Assembly (NCBI GenBank): GCA_035695685.1
Contig: DASRRN010000715.1
Coordinates: 1 to 42,616 of the forward strand
Length of the DNA: 42,616 nt
From: Acidobacteriaceae bacterium
GTDB taxonomy: Bacteria > Acidobacteriota > Terriglobia > Terriglobales > Acidobacteriaceae
Direction: 5' to 3'
In this document: positions 1,636 through 42,036 of the stretch, piece by piece
Position numbering within the stretch: the stretch's first letter is position 1
How the letters are laid out: each line of letters opens with the position of its first letter
The notes under the pieces: model-generated
The model's input: only the letters and a program-made list of their open reading frames with translations
What the model was told of the DNA's origin: nothing
Database searches by the model: none
Translations under genes and position numbers: made by a program

Positions 1636-1905
1636 ATGGATCAACCTATCAAATCGCTCGCATGGCAGCCTGGCGGGATCCTCGGTCCACTTAAGGATGG
1701 TCATTATGTCCAGGTGGGCATGGGCGTGGGTTTCTATGTTCCCGAGGCTGATTTTCAGACCGTTCAGCGCCTAGCCAACGAAACCGGCAAAGTGCAGTTT
1801 CTCTCAGTCGATCGCCTCGGCCGGCCGCTCCGCGGATCTCGCGAGGAGCTGCTGGCTAATCCTGAGTGCGCCGGCGTCATTGCCTGGATCACTCCCGGCG
1901 CGTAG
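1636..1905 (+). CDS. Hypothetical protein, 89 aa
   Basis: Track ORF with a strong SD, GGAGGGAG, at 1621-1628. Confidence 0.65.
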   Translation: MDQPIKSLAWQPGGILGPLKDGHYVQVGMGVGFYVPEADFQTVQRLANETGKVQFLSVDRLGRPLRGSREELLANPECAGVIAWITPGA

Positions 1906-1933
1906 TGTTGAGCTAATCAGTAAACCAAGGTTT

Positions 1934-1972
1934 GGCCGGCATCCACATCGCAGCGGATGCCGGCCGATTTTT
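1934..1972 (+). terminator. Rho-independent terminator
   Basis: Perfect 11-bp stem GGCCGGCATCC / GGATGCCGGCC (1934-1944 / 1955-1965) followed by GATTTTTG. Confidence 0.75.
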
Positions 1973-1973
1973 G

Positions 1974-2053
1974 TTATTACGTAATTACATTATTACGCCC
2001 ATATTCCTATGCGCCGTATATCTCTTGTATATATCCCGCCGCGCTGCTATATA
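1974..2053 (+). promoter_or_regulatory. parA promoter/operator region
   Basis: AT-rich region. TTATTACG direct repeat at 1974 and 1990; palindrome ATTACGTAAT at 1976-1985; TTGTAT (2025-2030), 17 nt, TATATA (2048-2053). Confidence 0.45.
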
Positions 2054-2084
2054 TAAGGCGGATCCGATCGGAGGGATCCGCTTG

Positions 2085-2777
2085 ATGATTCTCACGGTAG
2101 GTAACACCAAAGGCGGGGTCGGCAAAACCACTCTCGCCATCAATCTGACCATCGCTCTTGCCCTGGACGGCGCCGACGTTCTTCTGATCGACGGCGATGA
2201 GCAAGGCACTGCCATGGCCTTTACAGAGCTGAGGAGCGCGCGCCGGCCTGGTGGCGCCGGTTATACCGCGGTTGCTCTCCACGGCGCCGCTATACGCACC
2301 CAGGTGCGCCAGCTGCAATCCAAATACGATCACATCCTGATCGATGTGGGCGGGCGCGATTCCGGCTCTCTGCGCGCCGCGCTCACCGTCTCGAACTGGG
2401 TGCTTATTCCCACCGCGCCGCGCTCGTTCGATCTGTGGGGCGTCGGCCAGACCGCCGATCTGGTGCTCGAGGCGCGCGAAATCAACGCCAATCTCAACGC
2501 CGCGGCCGTCCTCAATGGTGCGGATCCGCGCGGCCGTGACAATCTCGAGGCCCAGGCTGAGCTGGAGCAACTGCAGGGCATTGTAGCTATGCCGTATCGC
2601 CTGGTGCGCCGCAAGGCCTACCCAGACGCTGCAGCACAGGGCCTGGGCGTGGTTGAGCTGCCCGCGCACAATCAGGCCGGCCTTGAGTTTAACCAGCTGC
2701 TCGATTTTCTCTTTGAACCTCAAAGAAACTGGAAAGGAAACTATGACGATTGCACGCAATCCGAAAAAGAAGTCTGA
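2085..2777 (+). CDS. parA: ParA/Soj-family partition ATPase
   Basis: Deviant Walker A, GNTKGGVGKTT, right at the N-terminus (MILTVGNTKGGVGKTTLAINL), followed by LIDGDEQG. SD GGAGGGA at 2070-2076. The track start 1932 would read through the terminator hairpin, so it is rejected. Confidence 0.85.
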   Translation: MILTVGNTKGGVGKTTLAINLTIALALDGADVLLIDGDEQGTAMAFTELRSARRPGGAGYTAVALHGAAIRTQVRQLQSKYDHILIDVGGRDSGSLRAALTVSNWVLIPTAPRSFDLWGVGQTADLVLEAREINANLNAAAVLNGADPRGRDNLEAQAELEQLQGIVAMPYRLVRRKAYPDAAAQGLGVVELPAHNQAGLEFNQLLDFLFEPQRNWKGNYDDCTQSEKEV

Positions 2778-2976
2778 TGTCAAAGCCGATCGCAAGGCCA
2801 GCAAATTTATAGCGGGATCCACGAACGGCGCCGGCCGCGACCTGGTGCCGGTGCTCATCAACCTCGATCGCGCGTTTCTCAAGCGCGTCGACGCCGCCGC
2901 CGTGGTGCGTGGGCTCAGTCGTACCGGCTTTGTCACCTCCGTGCTCGGCGATCGCCTGGCGAGCGAGGGGCAATAG
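2743..2976 (+). CDS. Ribbon-helix-helix DNA-binding protein, ParG-like partner of ParA
   Basis: ATG 2743 lies inside track ORF 2653..2976, with GGAAAGGAAA upstream. The product has a basic flexible N-terminus, then an RHH pattern (VLINLDRAFLKRVDAAAVVRGLSRTGFVTSVLGDRL). It overlaps the parA 3' end by 35 nt. Confidence 0.65.
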   Translation: MTIARNPKKKSDVKADRKASKFIAGSTNGAGRDLVPVLINLDRAFLKRVDAAAVVRGLSRTGFVTSVLGDRLASEGQ

Positions 2977-3615
2977 TCCGACTTTCCCCGTACCAGACAG
3001 TTAGTCTGTTCCCGGAGATCCGGCAAAGCGGGAGGGGTGGGTCCGGGAGGGGAACCGAAGCGGTTTTCCTCCCGGAAGCCCCAGTTTCAGCAAACACCTG
3101 GCCGCTAGCCGCGAACCTAATAAATCCCAAGAATCGATCTGCCCTCGTTTTACAGGGTTTTTGCTCTGTTCACGGACCGGGGCGCAAGTCGTCAGCGTAG
3201 CCCGGAAAACCCGCCTTCCGGCAGGCAAACCCTTTACGGCGCAGTTCTCCCCATCCCCGTTGGGCGCTTCACCGCGGCGACAAGGCCATCAACGGCCGGG
3301 CGCTTACTTTGCTGGGGCTAAACTCTCACGGATTGTTTGTTGGGCGCTTCACAGCCACACTCATCCTGTACGCGTGTGCCCACCCCTGGGATGAAGTCAC
3401 CATGCAGAGGCGCGGCCAAGCGCAGCATCGAAAAGGTCTGGATTTTGTTTGGGTGTTGAATGAGTAACCTTCGCAATCTTGTCTTGGCACTTCCACGGTT
3501 GCAAGCGGTGCCGGGGCGTGTCAATATGAATCCGTGGGGGTGTAATGCCTCCGATGGTTCCTTTCCTCTCTTGTCTTGGCGGATTAGATAGAAAAGGCAC
3601 CCTCACAAACATCAA
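2977..3615. other. 639-nt ORF-free region (candidate centromere / structured ncRNA)
   Basis: No ORF here has a start/SD context. The region lies between convergent transcription units and carries several short direct repeats and GC stems (see findings). Confidence 0.6.
3259..3352. repeat. Direct repeats GTTGGGCGCTTCAC x2 plus one partial copy
   Basis: The exact 14-mer occurs at 3259-3272 and 3339-3352, 80 nt apart. A partial copy, GGGCGCTTAC, is at 3298-3307. Confidence 0.8.
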
Positions 3616-3647
3616 GGCCGGCACCCATCAGGGCAGCCGGCCTTTCT
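3616..3647. terminator. GC hairpin, likely terminator of the minus-strand operon (possibly bidirectional)
   Basis: Stem GGCCGGC / GCCGGCC (3616-3622 / 3636-3642). The flank is T-rich on the minus strand (TTGATGTTTG) and TTTCT on the plus strand. It lies about 25 nt downstream of the minus-strand stop at 3667. Confidence 0.55.
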
Positions 3648-3648
3648 G

Positions 3649-3660
3649 CTGTATATACAG
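3649..3660. promoter_or_regulatory. Perfect 12-bp palindrome CTGTATATACAG
   Basis: Seen directly in the sequence, between the stop at 3667 and the hairpin. Function unknown. Confidence 0.35.
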
Positions 3661-3666
3661 AAGCTA

Positions 3667-3804
3667 TTACGGTGTGTTTTCAAAAAGCCAGCGGAGCCGT
3701 TGGTCACTCTCGCGCGAGAAACGGCCTGCGGCAAATTCGATGAAAATCGCCTTACAGTGCAGGATGGCTGCGAGCGTCCGCGCGTCGATCCTCTTCCAGT
3801 ACAT
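3667..3804 (-). CDS. Hypothetical small protein, 45 aa
   Basis: Internal ATG of track ORF 3667..3882, 2 nt after the stop of the upstream gene. GAAGGGA is upstream. The sequence looks helical (MYWKRIDARTLAAILHCKAIFIEF...). Confidence 0.45.
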   Translation of the reverse strand: MYWKRIDARTLAAILHCKAIFIEFAAGRFSRESDQRLRWLFENTP

Positions 3805-3806
3805 CG

Positions 3807-4142
3807 CTAATCGTCCCTTCGCTCTGCACACTTGCCGGCGATCGGTATGTTGTGCTTTGTGCCGTCCACTCCCTCCATCCACTTTCGGCCGCGCTCAAGA
3901 TAGCGGATGAACTCGACAACATTACTCTGAGCCAGGGCCACCAGCTTGCTGTGGTCCTCTTCGTATGCGATTAGCAGAGAGGTATTGAAGGGAAACATCG
4001 GAGGCGCCAGCGCTCCGCCGGCTTTCAGAGATTCGAGCGAGATCGGATCCGCCTTCTGCATCCGTCCCAGGTTGTCCGGTTCGATCACCACCACAATCAG
4101 GGTGCGCTTCTCTTCCGGTAAATTGAATATTCCACAAATCAT
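3807..4142 (-). CDS. Hypothetical protein, 111 aa
   Basis: Track ORF is 3807..4208. ATG 4142 (MICGIFNL...) forms an ATGA overlap with the DnaC-like stop. Confidence 0.6.
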   Translation of the reverse strand: MICGIFNLPEEKRTLIVVVIEPDNLGRMQKADPISLESLKAGGALAPPMFPFNTSLLIAYEEDHSKLVALAQSNVVEFIRYLERGRKWMEGVDGTKHNIPIAGKCAERRDD

Positions 4143-4975
4143 CGTTTCATTCTCCAGTCCGGTCCCGTCATGTCGACACTCACGCACATCTCCTGCAGCC
4201 GGCTCCACATGCGCATCCCGATGCGATCGCCCAGCGTCTCCTGACGTGTGGCGCGCGCGTACTCATTTTGTACATTTGTTACATTTCCGCCTGCCGGCAA
4301 ATTGGCCAGGTTGGTGGTTACGATCACGGGCACTATACGGTTGTATAGTCCTCCGATCAGTAGCTCGATGGTCTCAAACACCCAATCGCTCGGCCGAGCC
4401 GCGCCCAGCTCGTCAATCACCACCAGGTCTGCATTTAAAAGCGGGGCCAGAATCTGAGCCTGGCTTTCCTTGGCATCATCTCCATAGCTCGATCGCAATC
4501 GATCCAGGAGCTCGCGCACGTCGACAAAGCGGCCGTAGATTCCCTTCTCCTCAATCAGTTGGCGTAGCGCCGCCGCGGCCAGGTGCGTCTTGCCTACTCC
4601 CACACTGCCTGTAAGCATCAGGCCAAGTGTCCGCGGATTGGCAGCCAAACCGGGTACAAACTCGCGCACAAACTGCAGGCTCGTCATCATCGCCTTAGTA
4701 GTGGTTTCCGTCTTTTTGAAATTCTGAAAGCTGGCCTCGAGGTAGCCGGCCGGGATCCGCGATCGCGCAATCATCGCCTTATACCGCTGCGATGTCTGGC
4801 ACCTGCAGGGCGCCGAGCAGCGCACTCCGTCGACCAGGCGCGGCACCAGGCCGATGCCTCCGCATTCCGCGCATGCCGTCATGGTTTCGGGCGCGACCGC
4901 CGTCTGGTTTCGTTGACGAGGATCTTCAGGGCATCTGGATTCATTTTTCCCAGCTGAGCCGCTCCGCCCAGGCAT
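4139..4975 (-). CDS. DnaC/IstB-like AAA+ helicase loader with N-terminal Cys cluster
   Basis: Walker A GSVGVGKTHL, Walker B LVVIDELG, sensor VIVTTNL. The N-terminus has CAECGG..C..C.C. The start is ambiguous (4975 or 4882). Confidence 0.8.
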   Translation of the reverse strand: MPGRSGSAGKNESRCPEDPRQRNQTAVAPETMTACAECGGIGLVPRLVDGVRCSAPCRCQTSQRYKAMIARSRIPAGYLEASFQNFKKTETTTKAMMTSLQFVREFVPGLAANPRTLGLMLTGSVGVGKTHLAAAALRQLIEEKGIYGRFVDVRELLDRLRSSYGDDAKESQAQILAPLLNADLVVIDELGAARPSDWVFETIELLIGGLYNRIVPVIVTTNLANLPAGGNVTNVQNEYARATRQETLGDRIGMRMWSRLQEMCVSVDMTGPDWRMKR

Positions 4976-9202: not shown

Positions 9203-9346
9203 TCACTTTCTGGTTGCTTTTTCGAGCAGATCGATCACCAGCTGCTGCAGGGATTTGCCTTGTTGGAGAGCCTGCATCTTCAGCTTGTTCACCACGGCCG
9301 AGTCGATCGCCGGGATCCGTAGTTGCTGCATTCCGTCCTTTGCCAT
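9203..9346 (-). CDS. Ribbon-helix-helix (Arc/CopG-like) protein, 47 aa; first gene of the operon
   Basis: Below the track cut-off. LRIPAIDSAVVNKLKMQALQQGKSLQQLVIDLLEKA fits a strand-helix-helix pattern. Confidence 0.6.
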   Translation of the reverse strand: MAKDGMQQLRIPAIDSAVVNKLKMQALQQGKSLQQLVIDLLEKATRK

Positions 9347-9353
9347 GTGGGCA

Positions 9354-9381
9354 ATGTTAGCATAACTGGCACAAGCGGCAA
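9354..9381 (-). promoter_or_regulatory. Candidate promoter for the RHH-led operon (near-leaderless)
   Basis: On the minus strand: TTGCCG (9381-9376), 16 nt, TAACAT (9359-9354). The -10 box ends 7 nt before ATG 9346. Confidence 0.3.
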
Positions 9382-9397
9382 AGCGCGATCGTAAAAG

Positions 9398-9456
9398 TCT
9401 GAAGGAAACTCTTCAGAGTCTGACGGAAAAAGAAACGGCGCCCCGAAAGGCGCCGC
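9398..9456 (-). terminator. Tandem rho-independent terminators ending the late (structural/lysis) transcript
   Basis: On the minus strand: CGGCGCC-loop-GGCGCCG (9455-9436) then TTTCTTTTT. A second stem, TCTGAAG/CTTCAGA (9417-9398), is followed by CTTTTAC. Confidence 0.65.
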
Positions 9457-9495
9457 ATCCTCTGTCTCGCTCTGGCCGTGCTCCGTTGTACCTCC

Positions 9496-9663
9496 TTACT
9501 TGGTGGCTCCCTTGGCCGCCGCCATGGTGTTAGTCCAGCGTTGGCGCAGCTGGTTTAATTCCGCCTTCGCTTCGGCGTCCATCTTAGTGCCATACTTCGT
9601 ACCGCCCCAGAACACGAGCACGGTATAAACCACAAATCCAACCGCATACATCCAGAAATGCAT
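9496..9663 (-). CDS. Small membrane protein, 55 aa (lysis-cassette accessory)
   Basis: Below the track cut-off. Strong SD AAGGAGGG. The product has an N-terminal TM helix (MHFWMYAVGFVVYTVLVFWGG) and a charged tail. Confidence 0.65.
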   Translation of the reverse strand: MHFWMYAVGFVVYTVLVFWGGTKYGTKMDAEAKAELNQLRQRWTNTMAAAKGATK

Positions 9664-9678
9664 GATTTCCCTCCTTTC

Positions 9679-10170
9679 CTAGGACTTATTCCCCGCCTTG
9701 ACCAGGCCGAGCACACTGACCTGAGAATCGCCCTGCATGCCGGCCACCTGCTTGGCCATTTCGATGCCGGCCGGGATGCCCACAAAGCCCAGCATGATCG
9801 TGGCGAACATCGCGTGCATGCTCATGGGCAGATCGATCGGCGCCTGGCCCACAAATCGGCACCCCGCATAATTCCAGATGTACATCAGGGTCATCGAGAA
9901 ACAGAAGAAGGCGCGCATCCCCATCATGTAGTGATCATTCGAGACATTCTGCGCCGCCGCCGCAATCACCTTGTTTTGCTGATCGATCTGGGCCATCGCC
10001 ATCTGGTTCTGCGAGTCCAGGAGATGCATCTGGGCCTGCGCCTTCAAGGCTGGATCGGGAATGAATTTGTCGATTAGATCCTTGCCCAGATCCGCGATCG
10101 CGCTGATGGGGTTGGCCGAAACCGCCGCTCCTGTTATCCCGCTCAAAACCGATGTAACTGCGCTTGCCAT
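9679..10170 (-). CDS. Holin, 3-TM type (resembles the GTA/phage holin family)
   Basis: ATG 10170 overlaps the endolysin stop, with SD AGGAGGAGG. The N-terminus has LIDKFIPDPALKAQAQ, followed by hydrophobic helices. The track start 10260 is rejected. Confidence 0.6.
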   Translation of the reverse strand: MASAVTSVLSGITGAAVSANPISAIADLGKDLIDKFIPDPALKAQAQMHLLDSQNQMAMAQIDQQNKVIAAAAQNVSNDHYMMGMRAFFCFSMTLMYIWNYAGCRFVGQAPIDLPMSMHAMFATIMLGFVGIPAGIEMAKQVAGMQGDSQVSVLGLVKAGNKS

Positions 10171-10613
10171 TATGCTGCCTCCTCCTGATTGAACAGTTCG
10201 AATTCCGCATGGCGCCGGATCCTCAGCGCCGCCACTTCCACATTCCCCGCATGATCCCAAGCCAGCAGCTGCTGGGCCGCCGCCTCGTATCTGCCGGCAT
10301 TCAGCTCCGCGAGTAGCGTCGACGTCGCCAGGCGTCCGGATCCGAGGTTAAAGACAAAATCGACCAGGGCATCAAACTGCCCCTGGGTGAGCTCGACCTT
10401 GACCAGCCGATTCACGTTGGCTTCTGCAATCAGGACGTCTTTTGCCACGAGCTCTTCGCCGATCGCAAAGGTGATGCCATTCGCAAACACTTCGCCGGGC
10501 AGCAGGCGGTGGCCGTAACCGATGGTTCTGAAGCCGGCAATATCCCGGTAGACGGATCCGCGAAATCCTTCCGATCGCTTCAGTAGTGTCAGTCCGGTTT
10601 CACTCAGATGCAT
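10170..10613 (-). CDS. Endolysin, GH24 (T4/lambda-type lysozyme)
   Basis: LLKRSEGFRGSVYRDIAGFRTIGYGH carries the E-x8-D-x5-T catalytic spacing. QFDALVDFVFNLG is also present. Confidence 0.9.
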   Translation of the reverse strand: MHLSETGLTLLKRSEGFRGSVYRDIAGFRTIGYGHRLLPGEVFANGITFAIGEELVAKDVLIAEANVNRLVKVELTQGQFDALVDFVFNLGSGRLATSTLLAELNAGRYEAAAQQLLAWDHAGNVEVAALRIRRHAEFELFNQEEAA

Positions 10614-10620
10614 AAGCCCC

Positions 10621-11085
10621 TCATCTCATGGTCGCCAGTTTCACCAGTGCCAGAATCAATCCGCCGGCAACGGAAAGCACGGTGATGGTCTCACCGATCT
10701 GGCGCACCAATCCAAAAGCTCCGCCGCGGCGCTCGGCATAGCCGCTCAGGCGTTTGATATCGTCGCTCTGTTTTCGGTTTTGCTCGATCACCTGGCTCCA
10801 TTGCTCATCCTCTCGTTTGCGGTCCTGTTGCCGTCGCAGCTCAATGTCGCGGATTTCCTGGTAAAGCCGCTGCACCGTGCCCCGCAATCCGGTATCGATG
10901 CCGCTCTTCATATCGCCATACACCGCCGCCCTCACATCGATCATGCCTTCGGCGATCACTTTAATGCCGGCCAGCTCGGCGCTGTGGCTCTGCAAGAGGG
11001 CCGCGAGCTGATGCGAGCGATCGCGCATCTCCTTCTCAAGCTCTTTCAGTTCCTCCTGGGTTTTCTCCTCTTCGGCCATCTGCAA
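10621..11085 (-). CDS. Coiled-coil protein with C-terminal membrane anchor
   Basis: Track ORF. It has a charged helical body and the C-terminal TM helix ITVLSVAGGLILALVKLA. Confidence 0.55.
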   Translation of the reverse strand: MQMAEEEKTQEELKELEKEMRDRSHQLAALLQSHSAELAGIKVIAEGMIDVRAAVYGDMKSGIDTGLRGTVQRLYQEIRDIELRRQQDRKREDEQWSQVIEQNRKQSDDIKRLSGYAERRGGAFGLVRQIGETITVLSVAGGLILALVKLATMR

Positions 11086-11109: not shown

Positions 11110-14100
11110 TCAATTTCCCACGCAGCTAAACCGGATGGCATCTGTCCCGGTCCCGTTGAACGTCACACTCGACCCGCTGTTGTAGACCACATCGATGCCG
11201 TTGATTCCGGTCGAATCGTCCGGCGAGCAGACATAGGTCGAAGAAGATGTGAACACCGAAGCTCCGGTCAGCGTCACAGTCAGCGAGCCCGCCGTCAGCG
11301 TTCCCGAGCCGGTCACCATATGAGCTGAGGCTTGAATAGTTCCACTGGTGTTATAGAGCGGGGCAATCGAAGTCACGGCAACACCCCCATCAGTTGCGCT
11401 TCCATCGGCTGCAAACTTCGCAATATTGCCAGAAGCTCCGGTGCCATCGCTTAATTGCACCTTGGTTCCCGCTGTGCCATGAAAGCCGGTCAGAGTAGAC
11501 GGGAGCACGGTGTTTGCATTCAGCTGGTATCCGCCGAGCGTCGTATTGGCTCCAGGCAGCGCCCCCGAGGGCGTAATCGAGCCCGTATCCGTAAAGGTCA
11601 GGGTTGTCCCCGCCCCGATGGTCGACATGAACAGTTCCGCACCCGTCGTGCGTCCGTAGACCTTGTAGCCGGTCGCGCCCCGCACCTGCAGCCAGGTGAT
11701 GGTCGCCGTATTGGTGCTGGTGCCGCTGCCGGTGGTCACGCAGGTTTGAGCGCCGGGTAGAGTTTCTCCGTTCGCATTGGTAGCCGTGATGCGATAGCAG
11801 ACTTGGGTGGACGCCGCAATGGTGCCGCCCGTCGTGGCAGTCGTGGGTGTGTTCTGGGTTGGAGTAACAATCGCAATCAGATTCACGTTGCCTGCCGACT
11901 GGGTGCTGGCTCCGGAAATAAAGCCTGTCGCATCGGCTGCGACTGTGCCGTATGGGGCTGTGTTGTTTGGGATATCCAGAATCTTCTGATTGCTCGTACT
12001 GTCGGTGAACACAAGGTCAGTGTTGCCGTTGCCTGAACCTAAAATCCACCGCTGCGTCCCGGCCACAATCAGATCCCACTCGCAGCGTGCTCCAACATTA
12101 GCGGTGTTGCAGTAAAACTGAGCGCCGCCCGAGGCTGAGTTGAACGTAGATTTGACGCCTGATTTGGCCGTTGCCCCTGAACTGTTCACCTCGAAATCAA
12201 ACGCGGTGGCCGAAGTCGATCCGGCAGTGACGTTGTTCACTCCTACTACAAACTTGCAGCCCGAGGGCGCGGAAAAGCTGGCAGTCTGCACGCAGAAGTA
12301 AGACTGCGAATGCAGGTAATCCCAGACGTTCAGCAGCGAGGTGACGTCGATTTGCGCATCCGCGTTGGTGCGATAGGCATGAAACACCGACGCGAGAGGA
12401 TTCTGGCAGTTTCCCGCGACTGCCGGATTGCATAGTCCCGAGCCCTGAGAGCGGGGATCGCTGCTGCCGACATAAAGGTCGGTCGTCATGGTGCCGGTGT
12501 TGGCGACGGGGTTTGCATTTGCCCCAAATACTGTATTCAGGCCAAGGGCATTCCAGAGTTGCAGGCCATGCGCCAGGTTCTCATTCAAATTCGAGTGCAC
12601 TGAGAAATCCAGTTGCCCGCGCGCCTGCATATTGGCGGAAGTCTCGTTGAAGTAGTTGTCAAAATAGAAATAGCCGCTGGCCTGCGAAAACTGCCGCTCC
12701 TGATCGTTCGTCACTCTCGGGCAGTTGTTCCCGGTGTTCAGGATGTCGTAGCTGCCGGTGAACTCGAAATCGACAAGAGGATTGTTCGTCGTCCATTGGC
12801 TCGTATACTGCCCAAGCCAGTAACTGTAATCATGGAAGGTTGTCGGAGCGGCGGTGGTGGCCTGCTGGCATCCGCCCGTCCCGCCCGAAGTTCCATTCTC
12901 TTTCATCTCAAATGCAGCCACGGCGTAGTCGTCTGAAGCGAAGGCATTCCCGTTCTCCGTGGCCGATCCGTCGGCGTGGGTAAAGTTGGCTTTAAACTGC
13001 GAGCTTGAAAGTCCACTAGAAAGCACCGTCACCGATCCGCTATTCCCGGCCCCATCCTTGCCGTTCATGAACGCGCCGGTTACCAGACCGCCGACCATGA
13101 TCTTCTGTCCGGTCACAAACGTATTGGCCGCCGTGAAGGTGACGACATTCAAACTCAGGCTCCATGCTGTGATTTGCACGGGAGCGCCGGTCGCGGCCTG
13201 AAACCACGGTCCCACCACGGCGGTCGGGGTAGACACGCTGTCCGGCAGGCTCAGGCCTGGACGCGCAGTGCCGCCCACGTTGATGATGCCGTTACTAGCG
13301 GTGTTATACATCCCGACGCCGAAGACGTCGATCGCGCCTCCAGACGCAGAGACGGTCATCGTGTAGTAATCAGGCACCGCCTGAACCGTGGTCGTGACCG
13401 CCCCGATGGTCGATGCATTACTGAGCGACCCGGAAAAGATCGTGCATCCAGCCGGGCAGGCTCCCGACGCGCCGCTCGTGATCACGACCGTCATCGTTCC
13501 CGGGGTGGCGCTGCTAATCCCGTCCAGCAGCTCCTTGACGTAATACACGCGGAAGGTGTTGGCGTAGATCGAGGCACCGCCAGAGCCATAGGTCACGCTG
13601 CTGCTGGTTGCAATATTGGTGACGATGCCAGTAGGCGCACGGGTGAAATCGTAAGGGACCGTCGTGCCGTTGTTCTTCGTGATGGTTCCGGTGCTGGAGT
13701 TTGTCGTCATCCCACCGCCGCCAGACCCGCAAGGGATGCCGATGCTGGTCTGCAGCGAGCCGGAGCCGTTCATGTCGAACCCGGCAGCGCCGAGGCGACT
13801 CACCAGTCCGCAATAGATGATGAAGTTATGAAACAGGGCCGACGAATCGCCGTTCGGGATAACGCGGAGCTGAGAGGGACTATTCCCGCTCCCGGACTGC
13901 ATGTTGCCGATCGCGTTCAGCGTCGAATTGAGCGTATAGAAGTTTTGCGGCTGCGGGGCCCCGACCAGATTGCCCTGATGAGTCTGGCCAAGGTTAGGAT
14001 CGTCGCTCAAGAAAACAGCCGGAGAATCTGTGTAGCTCACGGTTTGCGACGCGGTAGGGGCCTTGATCACCGCCCCGGCAATGGCAGCGGCTGCGGAAGC

Positions 14101-36067: not shown

Positions 36068-36507
36068 GCAAACCTCCGCATGATCTCCCGAGCCAGGCTC
36101 GTAGCCTGCTCTTTAGTTAGCGCCACATATCCCTCGGGATGTTGCGCAACTTCGAGCTGCTTCATTTGGCCATCGGGGGTGAGAATGACTTTTTTGAAGT
36201 TTACGGTGATTGCTTCATCGGGCATCAGTAGCGCGTATCCGTCCTCGAAGGCCTTGGCGGACGAGAATGATTGATAACCGTCTTCATAAACCACCAAGTA
36301 TCCGCCTGCCTTTGGATCAAATCGTTCAAGCCATCCGGCGTTAACACCAATGAAAATCGGCGTTCCTTTCGCTTCCAATGCGAGCATCGCGTATTGCATC
36401 TCCGCTGGGTCCATAACTGAGGGAGACAACTTCACTTCGAGAATTTTGGCGGCTCTTACGATCTTGTGACACTTCCAACGAAGCAGTAGCTCTAATTCTG
36501 ATTTCAT
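36064..36507 (-). CDS. Hypothetical protein, 147 aa
   Basis: Track ORF with an ATGA overlap on the terminase stop. Confidence 0.55.
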   Translation of the reverse strand: MKSELELLLRWKCHKIVRAAKILEVKLSPSVMDPAEMQYAMLALEAKGTPIFIGVNAGWLERFDPKAGGYLVVYEDGYQSFSSAKAFEDGYALLMPDEAITVNFKKVILTPDGQMKQLEVAQHPEGYVALTKEQATSLAREIMRRFA

Positions 36508-38162
36508 CCGCTCAACCCCGGCATCGCCTCGCTCAGATCATCATGGCTCGGCGGGTCCCATTCTTCCTCTTGAACTTCCATCACCGGCTCGCGCTCGGCG
36601 TATTCCCCTCGACTGTACACCCGGTTATAAGCGTCCTGATCGAGCTGCGCCTGCCAGGCCTCCTCATCCGACGTCTCAAAGCCTTCGGCCGCGATCGATG
36701 CCGGCAAATTGGCTGCCACGCGGCTGATGACCGAGGCGATCTCCTGATCCTCGACCATACCGAAATGATAAAGCTGGCGGAAAACCTCTTGCGCGTTCTG
36801 GATCCCGTCAGAGAAAAGCAGCCGGCCGGCAATCAGGTGCGGTTCGGCGCTCTTGATGGCCAGGGAGCGCGCGGTGGGATCCTGCAGGTACTCCGCCCAT
36901 TGGATCTCGATGCGCCAAGCATCCTCGAGGGCCTGGTTGCGGATGTGCTGCTCCATCGATCGGGCGCCTGGGGTTTCCTCGATCTGGATCCGGTGCGTCT
37001 CCCATTTTCTGGCTAGGGAAATGACCCGGCGCGCCAAGGCGGTGGGAGTGAGGGTGTCCCGTACCACTTCCATGATCGTCATGCGGCCGGCTTTTTCGGC
37101 GCCCACGGCCGCGGCGGCATATTTGCACTCGGCATATTCAAAACGCCATGCAATGTATATACGTCCGTTATCCGGCGTGTCGTCGTCAGATATTTTTGCA
37201 GCCTCCAGCCGCTCCATGGGGAAGGTGGGTTTGAAATTGCCTTCGGCGATGTTCATATATTGCGTCCAGAACGAGTTTTCATCCAGGTTCTTCTCACTTC
37301 TCAAGAACTTCCAGGACAATTGCTCGGGGAACTGCAGAATCACGTCATCCTCGGTCAATTGATCGTCTTCGAGCTTCAAAGCATGCGGTTTGCGGATATA
37401 AGCCGGCCTCCAGAGATAGACCCAGGTGTCATCCATCTTCTGAATCATGTCGCCATAGAGATCCATGGGCCCGTAGCGCGTCCCGGTCAGATCTAAGAAG
37501 CCGTGCTCGCCCATCATCTTCAGGTTGATGTAGAAGTTTTGCCGCACTTTGCGCAGCGCAAAGGCGGTTTGCGAGTTGCGATTGTCCTGCACGTCCTCGC
37601 TTTTCAGAATGTCGGGATGCCATCCGCTTAGGCTCTGCTCGATCGATACACCTTTCAAGGTTGGATCGCGGCGGTACTTGGTGCGCGCCGGCGTGATGAA
37701 GGTGCCCGCGGGCTGCAGTTTGGTGATGACATGCTCGGGGAAGAGCTGATGCAGGATGGTCTGGGGCATTCCGGCTGGGCAATAGAAGTGGCTCGCCACT
37801 TCGGCTACGAATGCATCCGCCAGGGGCGAGTCCGGAGAATTCGAGGCGGTCATGGCCATCACCGCGACCTCGGGGAAAGCGATGATCCACTGCACCGTGT
37901 CGGTGATGTTGAATGTGGTTTTGTAAGTTTTGCGTGGCAGGAGCACCATGCGTTTGTGTTTGCGGTGCTGATCCTCGATCGGCCTGCTCGGATCCTTCTT
38001 AATGAAAACGTCGGCCACCTGGCGGTGCCATCGTTCGCTGACCTTGGTGTAGCCGAGCACATACTTCGTGAGCCAGAAAAGATCGGTTTGCGCGCGCAAT
38101 CGCAGCTCGTCTCTGTATGCCGCGTCTTCCGCGATCCGCGCCACATCGATCTGGTTATGCAT
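36504..38162 (-). CDS. terL: Terminase large subunit
   Basis: Walker A-like LLPRKTYKTT and Walker B-like SGWHPDILKSEDVQD, followed by a C-terminal nuclease-sized domain. 552 aa, located upstream of the portal. Confidence 0.85.
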   Translation of the reverse strand: MHNQIDVARIAEDAAYRDELRLRAQTDLFWLTKYVLGYTKVSERWHRQVADVFIKKDPSRPIEDQHRKHKRMVLLPRKTYKTTFNITDTVQWIIAFPEVAVMAMTASNSPDSPLADAFVAEVASHFYCPAGMPQTILHQLFPEHVITKLQPAGTFITPARTKYRRDPTLKGVSIEQSLSGWHPDILKSEDVQDNRNSQTAFALRKVRQNFYINLKMMGEHGFLDLTGTRYGPMDLYGDMIQKMDDTWVYLWRPAYIRKPHALKLEDDQLTEDDVILQFPEQLSWKFLRSEKNLDENSFWTQYMNIAEGNFKPTFPMERLEAAKISDDDTPDNGRIYIAWRFEYAECKYAAAAVGAEKAGRMTIMEVVRDTLTPTALARRVISLARKWETHRIQIEETPGARSMEQHIRNQALEDAWRIEIQWAEYLQDPTARSLAIKSAEPHLIAGRLLFSDGIQNAQEVFRQLYHFGMVEDQEIASVISRVAANLPASIAAEGFETSDEEAWQAQLDQDAYNRVYSRGEYAEREPVMEVQEEEWDPPSHDDLSEAMPGLSG

Positions 38163-40633: not shown

Positions 40634-40876
40634 ATGTCCCAGAAAAGAATAGTTTCGAACCCTTCTCTTCGCATCGCGGATGGAATTTCGATCCGCGTCC
40701 GCTTCGCCAGTCATGCACAAATTGCGCTGGTTAAAACTGCCGCCGCGCGGCGCGGACTTGGCTTCAACTTCTATCTGCAGTCTGTGCTCCAAGCAGTCTC
40801 TGAGCAGGTGATGGCCGCGCCTCTCACAACTTCCCTTGGCCACCTTCTCGAAGCAGAAAATTCCCAAACGAAATAG
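40634..40876 (+). CDS. Ribbon-helix-helix regulator, 80 aa
   Basis: ISIRVRFASHAQIALVKTAAARRGLGFNFYLQSVLQAV fits a strand-helix-helix pattern. The track start 40616 (GTG) is also possible. Confidence 0.6.
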   Translation: MSQKRIVSNPSLRIADGISIRVRFASHAQIALVKTAAARRGLGFNFYLQSVLQAVSEQVMAAPLTTSLGHLLEAENSQTK

Positions 40877-40986
40877 GTATTCCGCCACTGCTCCAAGCAT
40901 GATTAGGAGCATTTTTGTTCGCGCCGTTTTTGATCGTGCATGCCCGATGCTCCGAGCATCGCTCCTGCATAACGAGGTATGGGCTA

Positions 40987-42036
40987 ATGAGTAAGAGTTC
41001 TTCCCCTTTTCAATCGAAGGTTGATGTGTTTATGCCGCTCTACATCGGTCGCTATCTCCAGGACACAACCGAGCTAGATGGTGCCGAATCAGGGTTCTAT
41101 CTGCATCTGCTCATGCATATCTGGACTACCGGCCCGCTGCCGAATGACGATCGCAAGTTGGCGCAGATCGCGAAAACCACGCCCGATGCTTGGAGCATTG
41201 CATCTGCATCGGTCAAGCATCGGCTCTTTTTAGGCTCTGACGGCATGCTTCACCAGCGCGGAGCTGAGCGCATAAAGGCTGAATGGGTGGAGAAACGATT
41301 GAAAGCGCACGAGAAAGCCCAGCTGGCGGCGAATACGAGATGGAAAAAATACCGGGAACAGAAGGCGAACAAAAACGATGCTCCAAGCATTGCTAGAGCA
41401 ATGCCCTACAACGGTAAAGTACAAGTACAAAAGCAAAAGCAAACCCCACCCACCCCGCCCCAGCTTCGCCAGGGCGGGCCCGATGCTCCGCACACCGGAG
41501 TGCTCCAAGCATCCGCACGGCGAACCTCGAGGCCGGCGGCGGCGGGAGCACCCGGCGGCCGATCGGCGGCGATGCTGGGCGGGAAAGTAAAGCAAATAAA
41601 AGGCGAAACGGCCAGAAACGCCCCTAGGACGCGTCCGAATAGGCAGGTTGAGGGAATCCATCCTAAAAATGTCGGCGACGGCGGGGCGATACCACATCTT
41701 TCTGTCGCTCCCGGTGCAAAAAAGGTGGTGCAACCTCAAAAAACAGATCCGAGGGAGCGGGCCTTCCAAGAGGAGATTTTTGCCTACTGGCGAGGTCAGA
41801 ATCCGGAGCATCCAGATTGCCCCTGGGGAGAGGCGGAATGGAGGGCGCTTCGAGCACTCCTTATAAAGGTGGCGGATTTATCACTGGGGCAGTTACGTAC
41901 AGCGCTGCGAAACCGCGCTGCTTCGGGCATTCCACCAGGCGTGTTTCCCGGCAAATGGCTGCGCAACATCCTCGACTATTCATCCGGCCCACTCGATCGC
42001 TTCCATAAGCCTCTGCGCAGCTCTCGTGTGATGTAG
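40987..42036 (+). CDS. DUF1376-like phage replication-associated protein
   Basis: PLYIGRYLQDTTELDGAESGFYLHLLMHIWTTGPLPNDDRKLAQIA matches the conserved N-terminal block of the DUF1376 family. ATG 40987 has GAGG 10 nt upstream. The central region is basic and low in complexity. Confidence 0.6.
   Translation: MSKSSSPFQSKVDVFMPLYIGRYLQDTTELDGAESGFYLHLLMHIWTTGPLPNDDRKLAQIAKTTPDAWSIASASVKHRLFLGSDGMLHQRGAERIKAEWVEKRLKAHEKAQLAANTRWKKYREQKANKNDAPSIARAMPYNGKVQVQKQKQTPPTPPQLRQGGPDAPHTGVLQASARRTSRPAAAGAPGGRSAAMLGGKVKQIKGETARNAPRTRPNRQVEGIHPKNVGDGGAIPHLSVAPGAKKVVQPQKTDPRERAFQEEIFAYWRGQNPEHPDCPWGEAEWRALRALLIKVADLSLGQLRTALRNRAASGIPPGVFPGKWLRNILDYSSGPLDRFHKPLRSSRVM

Follow-up and report, generated by a model that had tools for sequence, protein, structure and literature searches.

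A candidate ~680-nt structured non-coding RNA downstream of parA in a phage-like genome

The window analyzed here, the full 42,616 nucleotides (nt) of contig DASRRN010000715.1, is a phage-like genome of ~42.6 kb with an SU10-type portal. An operon on its plus strand encodes a small ParA ATPase and a 77-amino-acid (aa) ribbon-helix-helix (RHH) protein, and a convergent minus-strand operon encodes a 111-aa protein and a DnaC-like helicase loader. The 830 nt between the two (2977-3806) form the largest gene-free gap in the window, both by the list of open reading frames (ORFs) and by independent gene calls, which were taken from a public contig (L001) identical to the window. An initial annotation, made from the letters alone, had singled out this long non-coding stretch and had named the adjacent pair as ParA and a small RHH protein. 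Both statements hold, the second through Pfam and PHROG matches and a CopG profile match. That annotation had also drawn the limits of an ORF-free block at 2977-3615. The block is ORF-free as described, but its limits shift: the conserved unit spans 2972-3655 and includes a hairpin (3614-3644) and the T-run behind it. We describe this unit, hereafter the element, as a candidate large structured non-coding RNA (ncRNA); coordinates of all features are collected in Table 1.

Relatives were found via contigs that encode homologs of the 111-aa and DnaC-like proteins beside the element, which itself occurs in seven distinct variants on ~16 metagenomic contigs. The carriers are a small group of soil or peat phages, with source samples such as JGI 3300018013, 3300031918 and 3300036786 and SRA runs SRR11833492, SRR29078244 and SRR29078194. 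A profile search with nhmmer recovered the block at full length in the variants (E 1e-158 to 1e-222) and nowhere else in ~115 fetched loci. It is present once per contig, with no second full-length copy in the window. When the region was compared by BLAST with GenBank phages and PLSDB plasmids, only parA matched. Six conserved-block patterns run on IMG/VR, and 18-mers run on JGI metagenomes and GTDB genomes, gave chance matches apart from L017/L076; because the distant variants do not conserve the 18-mer, absence from the GTDB genomes is weak evidence. We found no description of such an element in the literature.

The edges of the element are well defined. On the left it begins sharply at AATAG-YCCGAC. 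The TAG of this motif ends the RHH gene in the window and two different small ORFs in L005 and L017; in L099 it is non-coding and lies 9 nt past a TAA. On the right the element ends with the T-run that follows the hairpin at 3614-3644. Sequence outside both edges is unrelated among the variants. In L111 the aligned part lies within an 870-nt gene-free gap; the 3' domains and the terminator are retained and the 5' third is replaced, from which the RNA appears to be modular. The L111 gap (9585-10454, minus strand) holds a different, longer 5' part, in which a GCGCCUACUU-like motif occurs for a second time; it also has a GCC-GAAA-GGC hairpin, the loop of which has the GNRA form on the strand of the element. 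Other sister contigs carry ordinary genes, or no gap, at the same junction and lack the element entirely. These are L002-4, L095 and L097, which encode ParA, RHH and DnaC-like homologs, and L098 and L115, which have the DnaC-like module. The element is therefore an accessory module, dispensable within the clade.

Where present, the block is conserved as well as its flanking genes or better (identities in Table 1). The core at 3119-3413 is 89-100% identical in L005, L017 and L096, and invariant runs reach 25 nt. Within this core, 3119-3248 is 92-97% identical to the window in the same three variants, and 3249-3340 keeps 90% identity even in L006. The distant L099 still carries CCCAUCCCCGUU.GGCGC of the most conserved stretch. 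The least conserved part is 3414-3533 (54-63%), where L096 aligns poorly.

This conservation is not that of a protein. Variable columns are spread over the three codon phases as 82/84/103 (p = 0.22), that is, with no periodicity, and indels in the block are not multiples of three. None of ten ORFs in or beside the region matches Pfam at E<=0.01, and the longest ORF inside the block, of 77 aa, is not conserved. Missing codon phase, protein-family matches and frame-keeping indels lead us to reject a pseudogene or a protein-coding region, and with them the suggestion in the initial annotation that a gene had decayed here. Conservation without a coding signal argues for purifying selection on non-coding sequence.

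The variation that does occur follows base-pairing. RNAalifold applied to four variants predicts 189 pairs in 28 helices, with 95.5% of cells paired. Compensatory changes fall on 24 of the 189 pairs, compared with 11.2 +/- 2.2 when partners were shuffled (none of 500 shuffles reached 24) and with 0-6 when partners were slid by 1-3 columns. With five variants, 25 of 190 pairs are compensatory. As this fold derives from the same few sequences, individual helices were checked in the distant variants L099 and L111, one helix at a time instead of by a single global structural alignment. Individual helices persist through three to four alternative sets of pairs, also in L111 and in L099, which is 64% identical. 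A multi-helix secondary structure thus has the support of compensatory changes in the predicted fold. The structured ncRNA that the initial annotation had ranked second among its hypotheses is the one best supported.

Several helices illustrate this. The pairing of CGACUU with AAGUCG, Watson-Crick at all six positions in six variants, joins the predicted 5' end of the RNA to the loop of the hairpin at 3177-3205, and shows two independent double changes (CAACUU/AAGUUG in L006, CGACCU/AGGUCG in L099). The 5' hairpin, invariant in the five close variants, reads CCCCG/CGGGG plus CACA/UGUG in L099, according to the alignment and a single-sequence fold. Three compensatory pairs fall in the apical stem of the G-rich domain, which exists as CCGG../..CCGG, GUGG../..CCAC and GCGA../..UCGC, and by our reading of the alignment L099 keeps a 12-base-pair (bp) stem of different sequence. 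The closing pair of the multi-branched domain is G-C in three variants and A-U in two, and by our own reading GGGUU/AACCC becomes GGGCU/AGCCC in L099. Helix 3341-3347/3376-3382 occurs in four combinations, three of them tabulated and including UGGGCG/UGCCCA and CGGGA/UCCCG; alignments read GGGAU/AUCCC in L099 and GGGAAU/AUUCCC in L111. Helix 3383-3386/3407-3410 likewise has four versions, three tabulated, with CCGG/CCGG in L099 and L111 by our own realignment. The outer helices 3300-3319/3395-3413 show several switches from G.U to Watson-Crick pairs, and the variable domain shows many compensatory changes in the four-sequence fold (helices 21-23). All seven variants retain the 10-bp helix of the 3' domain, where one double change and several switches from G.U to Watson-Crick pairing occur, and a pair in the stem of the inner UGGC hairpin is U-A in four variants, C-G in two and G-C in one. 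Pseudoknots between the G-runs at 3030-3041 and CCCCAUCCCC or CCCACCCCU were considered by eye and rejected, as the changes in L017 are uncompensated.

Table 1. Features of the locus and of the element in its relatives. Coordinates are those of the window unless a relative is named; domains and helices are predictions.
Feature	Coordinates	Strand	Remarks
Predicted parA promoter/operator region	1966-2057	+	Short repeats
Upstream operon parA-RHH	2085-2976	+	Stop codon TAG inside the conserved block
Small ParA ATPase	2085-2777	+	Pfam CbiA/AAA_31; PHROG ParA-like
77-aa RHH protein	2743-2976	+	Homolog profile matches CopG, E 0.0045
Whole conserved element (window = L001), candidate ~680-nt structured ncRNA gene	2972-3655	+ (predicted)	Boundaries in seven variants
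Long-range/pseudoknot helix CGACUU/AAGUCG	2979-2984/3186-3191	+	Six pairs Watson-Crick in six variants
5' hairpin	2985-3018	+	Outer UC.CCG/CGG.GA, inner CAGAC/GUCUG (2994-2998/3004-3008); invariant in five close variants
Long G-rich hairpin domain	3019-3114	+	Basal helices 3019-3035/3098-3114; 15-bp apical stem 3043-3057/3061-3075
Multi-branched domain	3136-3247	+	Outer 3136-3148/3236-3247, then 3154-3161/3227-3233; RNAalifold consensus
Hairpins of multi-branched domain	3165-3176, 3177-3205, 3210-3225	+	
Most conserved stretch, CCCCAUCCCCGUUGGGCGCUUCACCGCGGCGAC...GGCC	3249-3299	+	Short predicted hairpins only; first 14-mer copy inside
Long hairpin domain	3300-3413	+	Helix 3341-3347/3376-3382 (second 14-mer copy); local helix 3383-3387/3406-3410
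Variable hairpin domain	3415-3488	+	Closed by GCCAAG/CUUGGC (3415-3421/3482-3488); first CUUGGCA motif inside
3' domain	3534-3606	+	10-bp helix GUGGGGGUGU/GCACCCUCAC (3534-3543/3597-3606) and small hairpins; seven-variant fold
Terminal hairpin and T-run, predicted intrinsic terminator	3614-3655	+	9-bp G+C-rich inverted repeat (3614-3622/3636-3644)
111-aa protein gene	3807-4142	-	Independent gene calls
DnaC-like helicase loader	4139-4882	-	
Element in L005	10852-11529	-	Identity to window: element 88%, parA side 73%, DnaC side 83%
Element in L017 (= L076)	3932-4613	+	Element 85%, parA side 73.5%, DnaC side 84%
Element in L096	1144-1816	-	Element 81.5%, parA side not on contig, DnaC side 79%
Element in L006	11415-12089	-	Element 77%, parA side 66%, DnaC side 68.5%
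Element in L099 (= L100-L104)	9330-10035	-	Element 64.5%, parA side 63%, DnaC side 66.6%
Element in L111 (= L112-L114)	9593-10113	-	3' two-thirds only align to window
Small conserved ORF, L005	11525-11710	-	
Small conserved ORF, L017	~3566-3715	+	

All sequence features listed in the initial annotation are present on reading 1800-4400. Several of these motifs are not conserved in that form. The 14-mer GTTGGGCGCTTCAC occurs exactly at 3259 and 3339, 80 nt apart. With up to two mismatches it has two matches in the window against 0.35 expected, a number reached in 1 of 100 shuffles. The second copy diverges in relatives and covaries with 3376-3382. We also located GGGCGCTTAC (3298-3307), as well as CTTGTCTTGGC at 3478 and 3570, each time within a 21-nt repeat (3468-3488 and 3560-3580); the second CUUGGCA forms a hairpin loop in the predicted 3' domain. 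CCGGRA/TYCCGG boxes lie at 3012, 3019, 3043, 3072, 3202 and 3216, a 16-nt inverted repeat makes up the stem 3042-3057/3061-3076, and the weak stem with its T-run is at 3141-3162. The GGC-GCAA-GTC sequence at 3181-3190 is there too; in the fold AAGUCG (3186-3191) pairs with 2979-2984, which places the proposed tetraloop within a long-range helix. It is comparative conservation and compensatory change, rather than these motifs, that set the region beyond chance.

The organization of the locus suggests how the element would be transcribed. In six of the seven contexts it starts 0-115 nt past the stop codon of a co-oriented ORF (the L096 contig ends at the 5' end of the element), and in all seven it ends at the hairpin and T-run. 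Two positions of the terminator stem swap G-C to C-G in L099 and L111. A terminator scan calls the hairpin in the orientation of the element in L006 and L099, and the T-tails read TTTTGATTT(T) in L005 and L006 and TTTTTCTT in L099. No terminator lies between the stop codon at 2976 and the element. Because the convergent operon meets the hairpin before it meets the element, a plus-strand transcript of the upstream operon would have to include the element, and transcription of the element from the minus strand would depend on read-through or on a promoter that we did not see. This anatomy agrees with the earlier remark that no promoter is needed here. The hairpin probably also stops the convergent minus-strand operon. 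By eye, a promoter-like TTGTAT-17-TATATA lies at 2024-2052, and a consensus scan finds no plus-strand promoter. In L006 a 115-nt spacer (12095-12200, minus strand) separates the RHH gene from the element, and in it two copies of TACCGCGAWTTACCGC flank a promoter-like TTGACG-17-GATATA; the element may have a regulated promoter of its own here. A candidate sigma-54 promoter, TGGCAC-N8-TTGCA (3484-3502), was rejected, its spacing being 3 nt longer than we take the consensus to allow.

Taken together, we put at about 0.6 the probability that 2972-3655 is a ~680-nt multi-domain structured ncRNA of an undescribed family, carried as the tail of its upstream operon. Transcription would run along the plus strand as the tail of that operon, here parA-RHH, and the transcript would end at the hairpin and U-tract (3614-3655). 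The RNA would be organized, in order, as the pairing of its 5' end with a distant loop, the domains at 3019-3114 and 3136-3247, the near-invariant stretch at 3249-3299, and the domains at 3300-3413, 3415-3488 and 3534-3606. Since the element is accessory cargo in a variable region that also holds accessory genes, we infer a trans-acting RNA rather than a cis-acting DNA site. We suggest with low confidence, by analogy, that such a stable folded RNA may act as a protein scaffold or a decoy, or may self-assemble like other large ornate phage RNAs. A search of the window for trans-targets gave one 13-mer, at chance level by our own estimate: 40812-40824, ~90 nt 5' of a DUF1376 gene (40915-42036, plus strand), is perfectly complementary over 13 nt to AGAGGCGCGGCCA (3406-3418), a highly conserved sequence. 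A bolder version, which we regard as doubtful, would make the element a representative of a new class of large functional RNA that has its own activity (self-assembly like that of ROOL or GOLLD, a large ribozyme, or a decoy for a defense or regulatory protein of the host) and belongs to phage-plasmids of Acidobacteriota in soil, kept as swappable cargo at the maintenance/replication junction.

Several observations weigh against a plus-strand structured RNA and are best considered together with the competing readings. The case is built from seven variants, five of them close, and the consensus fold was optimized on the same sequences. The fold is ambiguous in the partner of 3324-3331 and across 3415-3533, the proposed mode of action draws on analogy and genomic context, the T-run of the window (TTTCTGCTG) is weak and below the threshold of the terminator scan, and scans of both strands of the window, L006 and L099 found no sigma-70-like promoter near the element, although host promoters may differ from the consensus. 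Other points concern the strand. Over the helices that the two strand folds have in common, G.U and A.C counts are balanced (9 vs 14, 18 vs 16). Single-sequence folding energy is unremarkable, and its z-scores (plus/minus) lean slightly to the minus strand, with -1.1/-2.9 in the window and -0.5/-2.9 in L111; L006 (-1.9/-0.7) and L099 (-3.2/-2.8) complete a set of four variants that is inconsistent. Helix 3383-3387/3406-3410 has C.A on the plus strand in four variants, where the minus strand has G.U and is fully canonical in all five close variants. A strand-symmetric helix search was swamped by noise in its permissive version and still mixed in a stricter one. The same conserved structured RNA might then be made from the minus strand, or from both. 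It would start near the hairpin, run back in antisense toward the RHH gene end, and act as an antisense or independent RNA; the minus-strand RNAalifold consensus is as good or better (-210 vs -198 kcal/mol). Yet, on the minus strand, a terminator hairpin (with UUUUUGUUU tails in both L099 and L111, as we read them) would precede the element, no terminator would lie at its far end, and no promoter-like site comes before it in the window, L006 or L099. In addition, helix 3534-3543/3597-3606 has 11 G.U cells against one C.A cell on the plus strand, and the 3043-3075 stem has two conserved G.U pairs; on the minus strand both would carry conserved A.C mismatches. We consider the minus-strand version unlikely, and from genomic context and G.U patterns we assign the predicted RNA to the plus strand with reasonable confidence.

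The remaining alternatives differ from a trans-acting RNA in what the block would do. The main non-trivial alternative on mechanism is a cis-acting replication element, such as a ColE1 RNA II-like transcript, an R-loop origin or another structured initiation site. The ColE1 RNA II pre-primer is a structured transcript of several hundred nt with a G-rich segment, made by an extrachromosomal replicon, and the block recalls it in size and heavy folding, in its place beside replication functions (it adjoins the end of the DnaC-like loader operon in every variant) and in its G-runs (3028-3053), which lie on the transcribed-sense strand and are of the type that favors RNA-DNA hybrids. Conservation above that of neighboring genes would also fit an essential cis site. 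Sisters with DnaC-like, clamp-loader-like and ParA modules nevertheless lack the block entirely, the 5' third is replaced in L111, the block ends in an intrinsic terminator rather than a processing site, and this replicon encodes loader and initiator candidates of its own. Furthermore, the block lacks a DnaA box within one mismatch, iterons that the variants share and any AT-rich segment (GC 0.53-0.64), and a sigma-70 consensus scan, a consensus that may not apply to this host, found no antisense RNA I-like promoter. We rate a cis replication role as quite improbable. Less credible still is a selfish or mobile non-coding cassette (a miniature inverted-repeat transposable element or intron remnant, for instance) or a decayed gene, inherited by descent but of no function to the phage. 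Its patchy distribution, the differing flanking genes and the upstream ORFs that run into the TAG of the block in three contexts (window, L005, L017) speak for such a cassette, but the block always occupies the same convergent junction in one copy per contig, has no intron, ribozyme or other Rfam match and no coding signal, and its invariant runs and its conservation equal to or above the coding flanks argue for selection. The end sequences show no terminal inverted repeats or target duplications, as far as can be seen in the absence of a dedicated search across the ends. The initial annotation had preferred a parS/parC-like centromere, bound by the RHH protein for ParA-driven partition, and this we find very hard to sustain. 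In five variants the block does lie directly 3' of the small ParA and RHH genes, the window has two two-copy repeats, and in some type Ib par loci, such as pB171 par2 with parC1 and parC2, centromere repeats lie on either side of the operon. Type Ib centromeres (pB171 par2, parH of TP228 parFGH), however, are arrays of many short iterated repeats to which the RHH protein binds, and they move together with the par genes. The block has no conserved array: its repeats are two-copy only, and the second 14-mer copy is not conserved (GTTCGGGACCGGAC in L006, GTTGAGCACTTCAC in L017) and covaries as a helix arm. Nor does it travel with par. The par genes of L099 occupy 2315-3292 and its element 9321-10034 (9330-10035 in Table 1); those of L111 occupy 3448-4397 and its element 9593-10450, of which 9593-10113 aligns to the window, so that the two are 6-7 kb apart and the element follows unrelated small ORFs; conversely, L002-4, L095 and L097 have ParA-RHH and no element. 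The block remains 77-88% identical while the RHH protein falls to 58-68% aa identity, and long-range compensatory changes have no rationale in a duplex protein-binding site.

The region 5' of parA (1966-2057) is rich in repeats and more typical of an operator. It contains TTATTACG palindromes, overlapping palindromes around TTATTACGTAATTACATTATTACG and direct repeats GTATATCTC/GTATATATC, and relatives have TTACTGCAT-type repeats of different sequence at the same place. From this repeat content, 1966-2057 is probably the likelier operator or centromere of the RHH protein. Words resembling TGTATATA are enriched in the window (15 vs 5.3 +/- 2.1) and cluster 5' of a clamp-loader-like AAA+ gene (105-116), 5' of parA (2016-2055) and at 3649-3660, where the perfect palindrome CTGTATATACAG lies directly 3' of the hairpin of the element. 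A common regulator may recognize such words on either side of the par operon and the element. The clamp-loader-like gene (172-846) is itself flanked by a 38-nt direct repeat, 92% identical (146-183 and 890-927).

The surroundings of the element vary between relatives. In the window, a 160-nt spacer (3646-3806) separates the terminator from the stop codon of the 111-aa gene and has no similarity to relatives, which carry accessory genes at this position that differ from one relative to another. L005, for instance, has a 140-aa ORF and, on the terminator side, a 73-aa protein (gene 10612-10833) with the Pfam domain PF24729 Acb2_Tad1_hairpin, which we take to be a domain of phage anti-defense proteins; L006 has a helix-turn-helix protein and another two ORFs. 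After the RHH gene, L005 and L017 share a small conserved ORF (MNR.ELR.KAFEIAAGLI..., of 61 aa in L005) that the window lacks. Pfam searches of the ORFs that flank the element in relatives found no shared partner family.

As the window has its own par module, a plasmid-prophage lifestyle of this phage is plausible. No integrase domain was found among the ~20 larger window proteins scanned, smaller ORFs being outside that scan. The nearest cultured relative of the terminase (36504-38162) is that of Tunturiibacter phage Tunturi_3, at 26% aa identity, and the sister contig L097 (NCBI JBAWCO010000124.1, 42.9 kb) is binned in a Terracidiphilus metagenome-assembled genome, which is acidobacterial. 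These two sequence-based links weakly suggest Acidobacteriota as the host phylum. The family of the DnaC-like protein of this phage group is large, with 546 clusters at E<=1e-30.

The element matches no known RNA family. Rfam 15 at gathering thresholds gave no match in the window and six relatives, with ROOL, GOLLD, OLE, introns, RNase P, tmRNA and 6S included. Permissive scans (E<=10 for the window, E<=1 for L111) returned chance-level matches only, and ARAGORN found no tRNA or tmRNA in the region. Few RNAs of bacteria or phages both exceed ~500 nt and have an intricate conserved fold; those found so far (OLE, GOLLD and ROOL) are structurally unusual, with functions that are largely open. A further, unrelated family would be an independent case for studying the role of such RNAs. 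This one would offer clean boundaries, sister genomes with and without the element and a modular variant, in a barely studied phage group that probably infects Acidobacteriota. It also corrects an easy mis-annotation, as a long gap past ParA/RHH genes need not be a centromere.

Among the known large RNAs, OLE is described as an intricate RNA of ~600 nt from Gram-positive extremophiles and anaerobes and as a component of a ribonucleoprotein complex (PMC9723947). The block is like OLE in size, intricate structure and long invariant stretches, and unlike it in its phage location (OLE is chromosomal), in the lack of an Rfam match and in having no conserved neighboring protein family. The partner proteins of OLE are dedicated ones, encoded beside it. 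ROOL and GOLLD are described as forming RNA-only homo-oligomeric assemblies (PMC12286853). The block differs from them in having no covariance-model match even at E<=10, hence no homology, in its probable Acidobacteriota host (on weak evidence), and in its place as an operon tail at a convergent junction, beside a terminator. It resembles them in being several hundred nt long with a stand-alone intergenic location in phages, in its many covarying helices interspersed with highly conserved nucleotides, and in a patchy, accessory distribution with no obligatory protein-coding partner.

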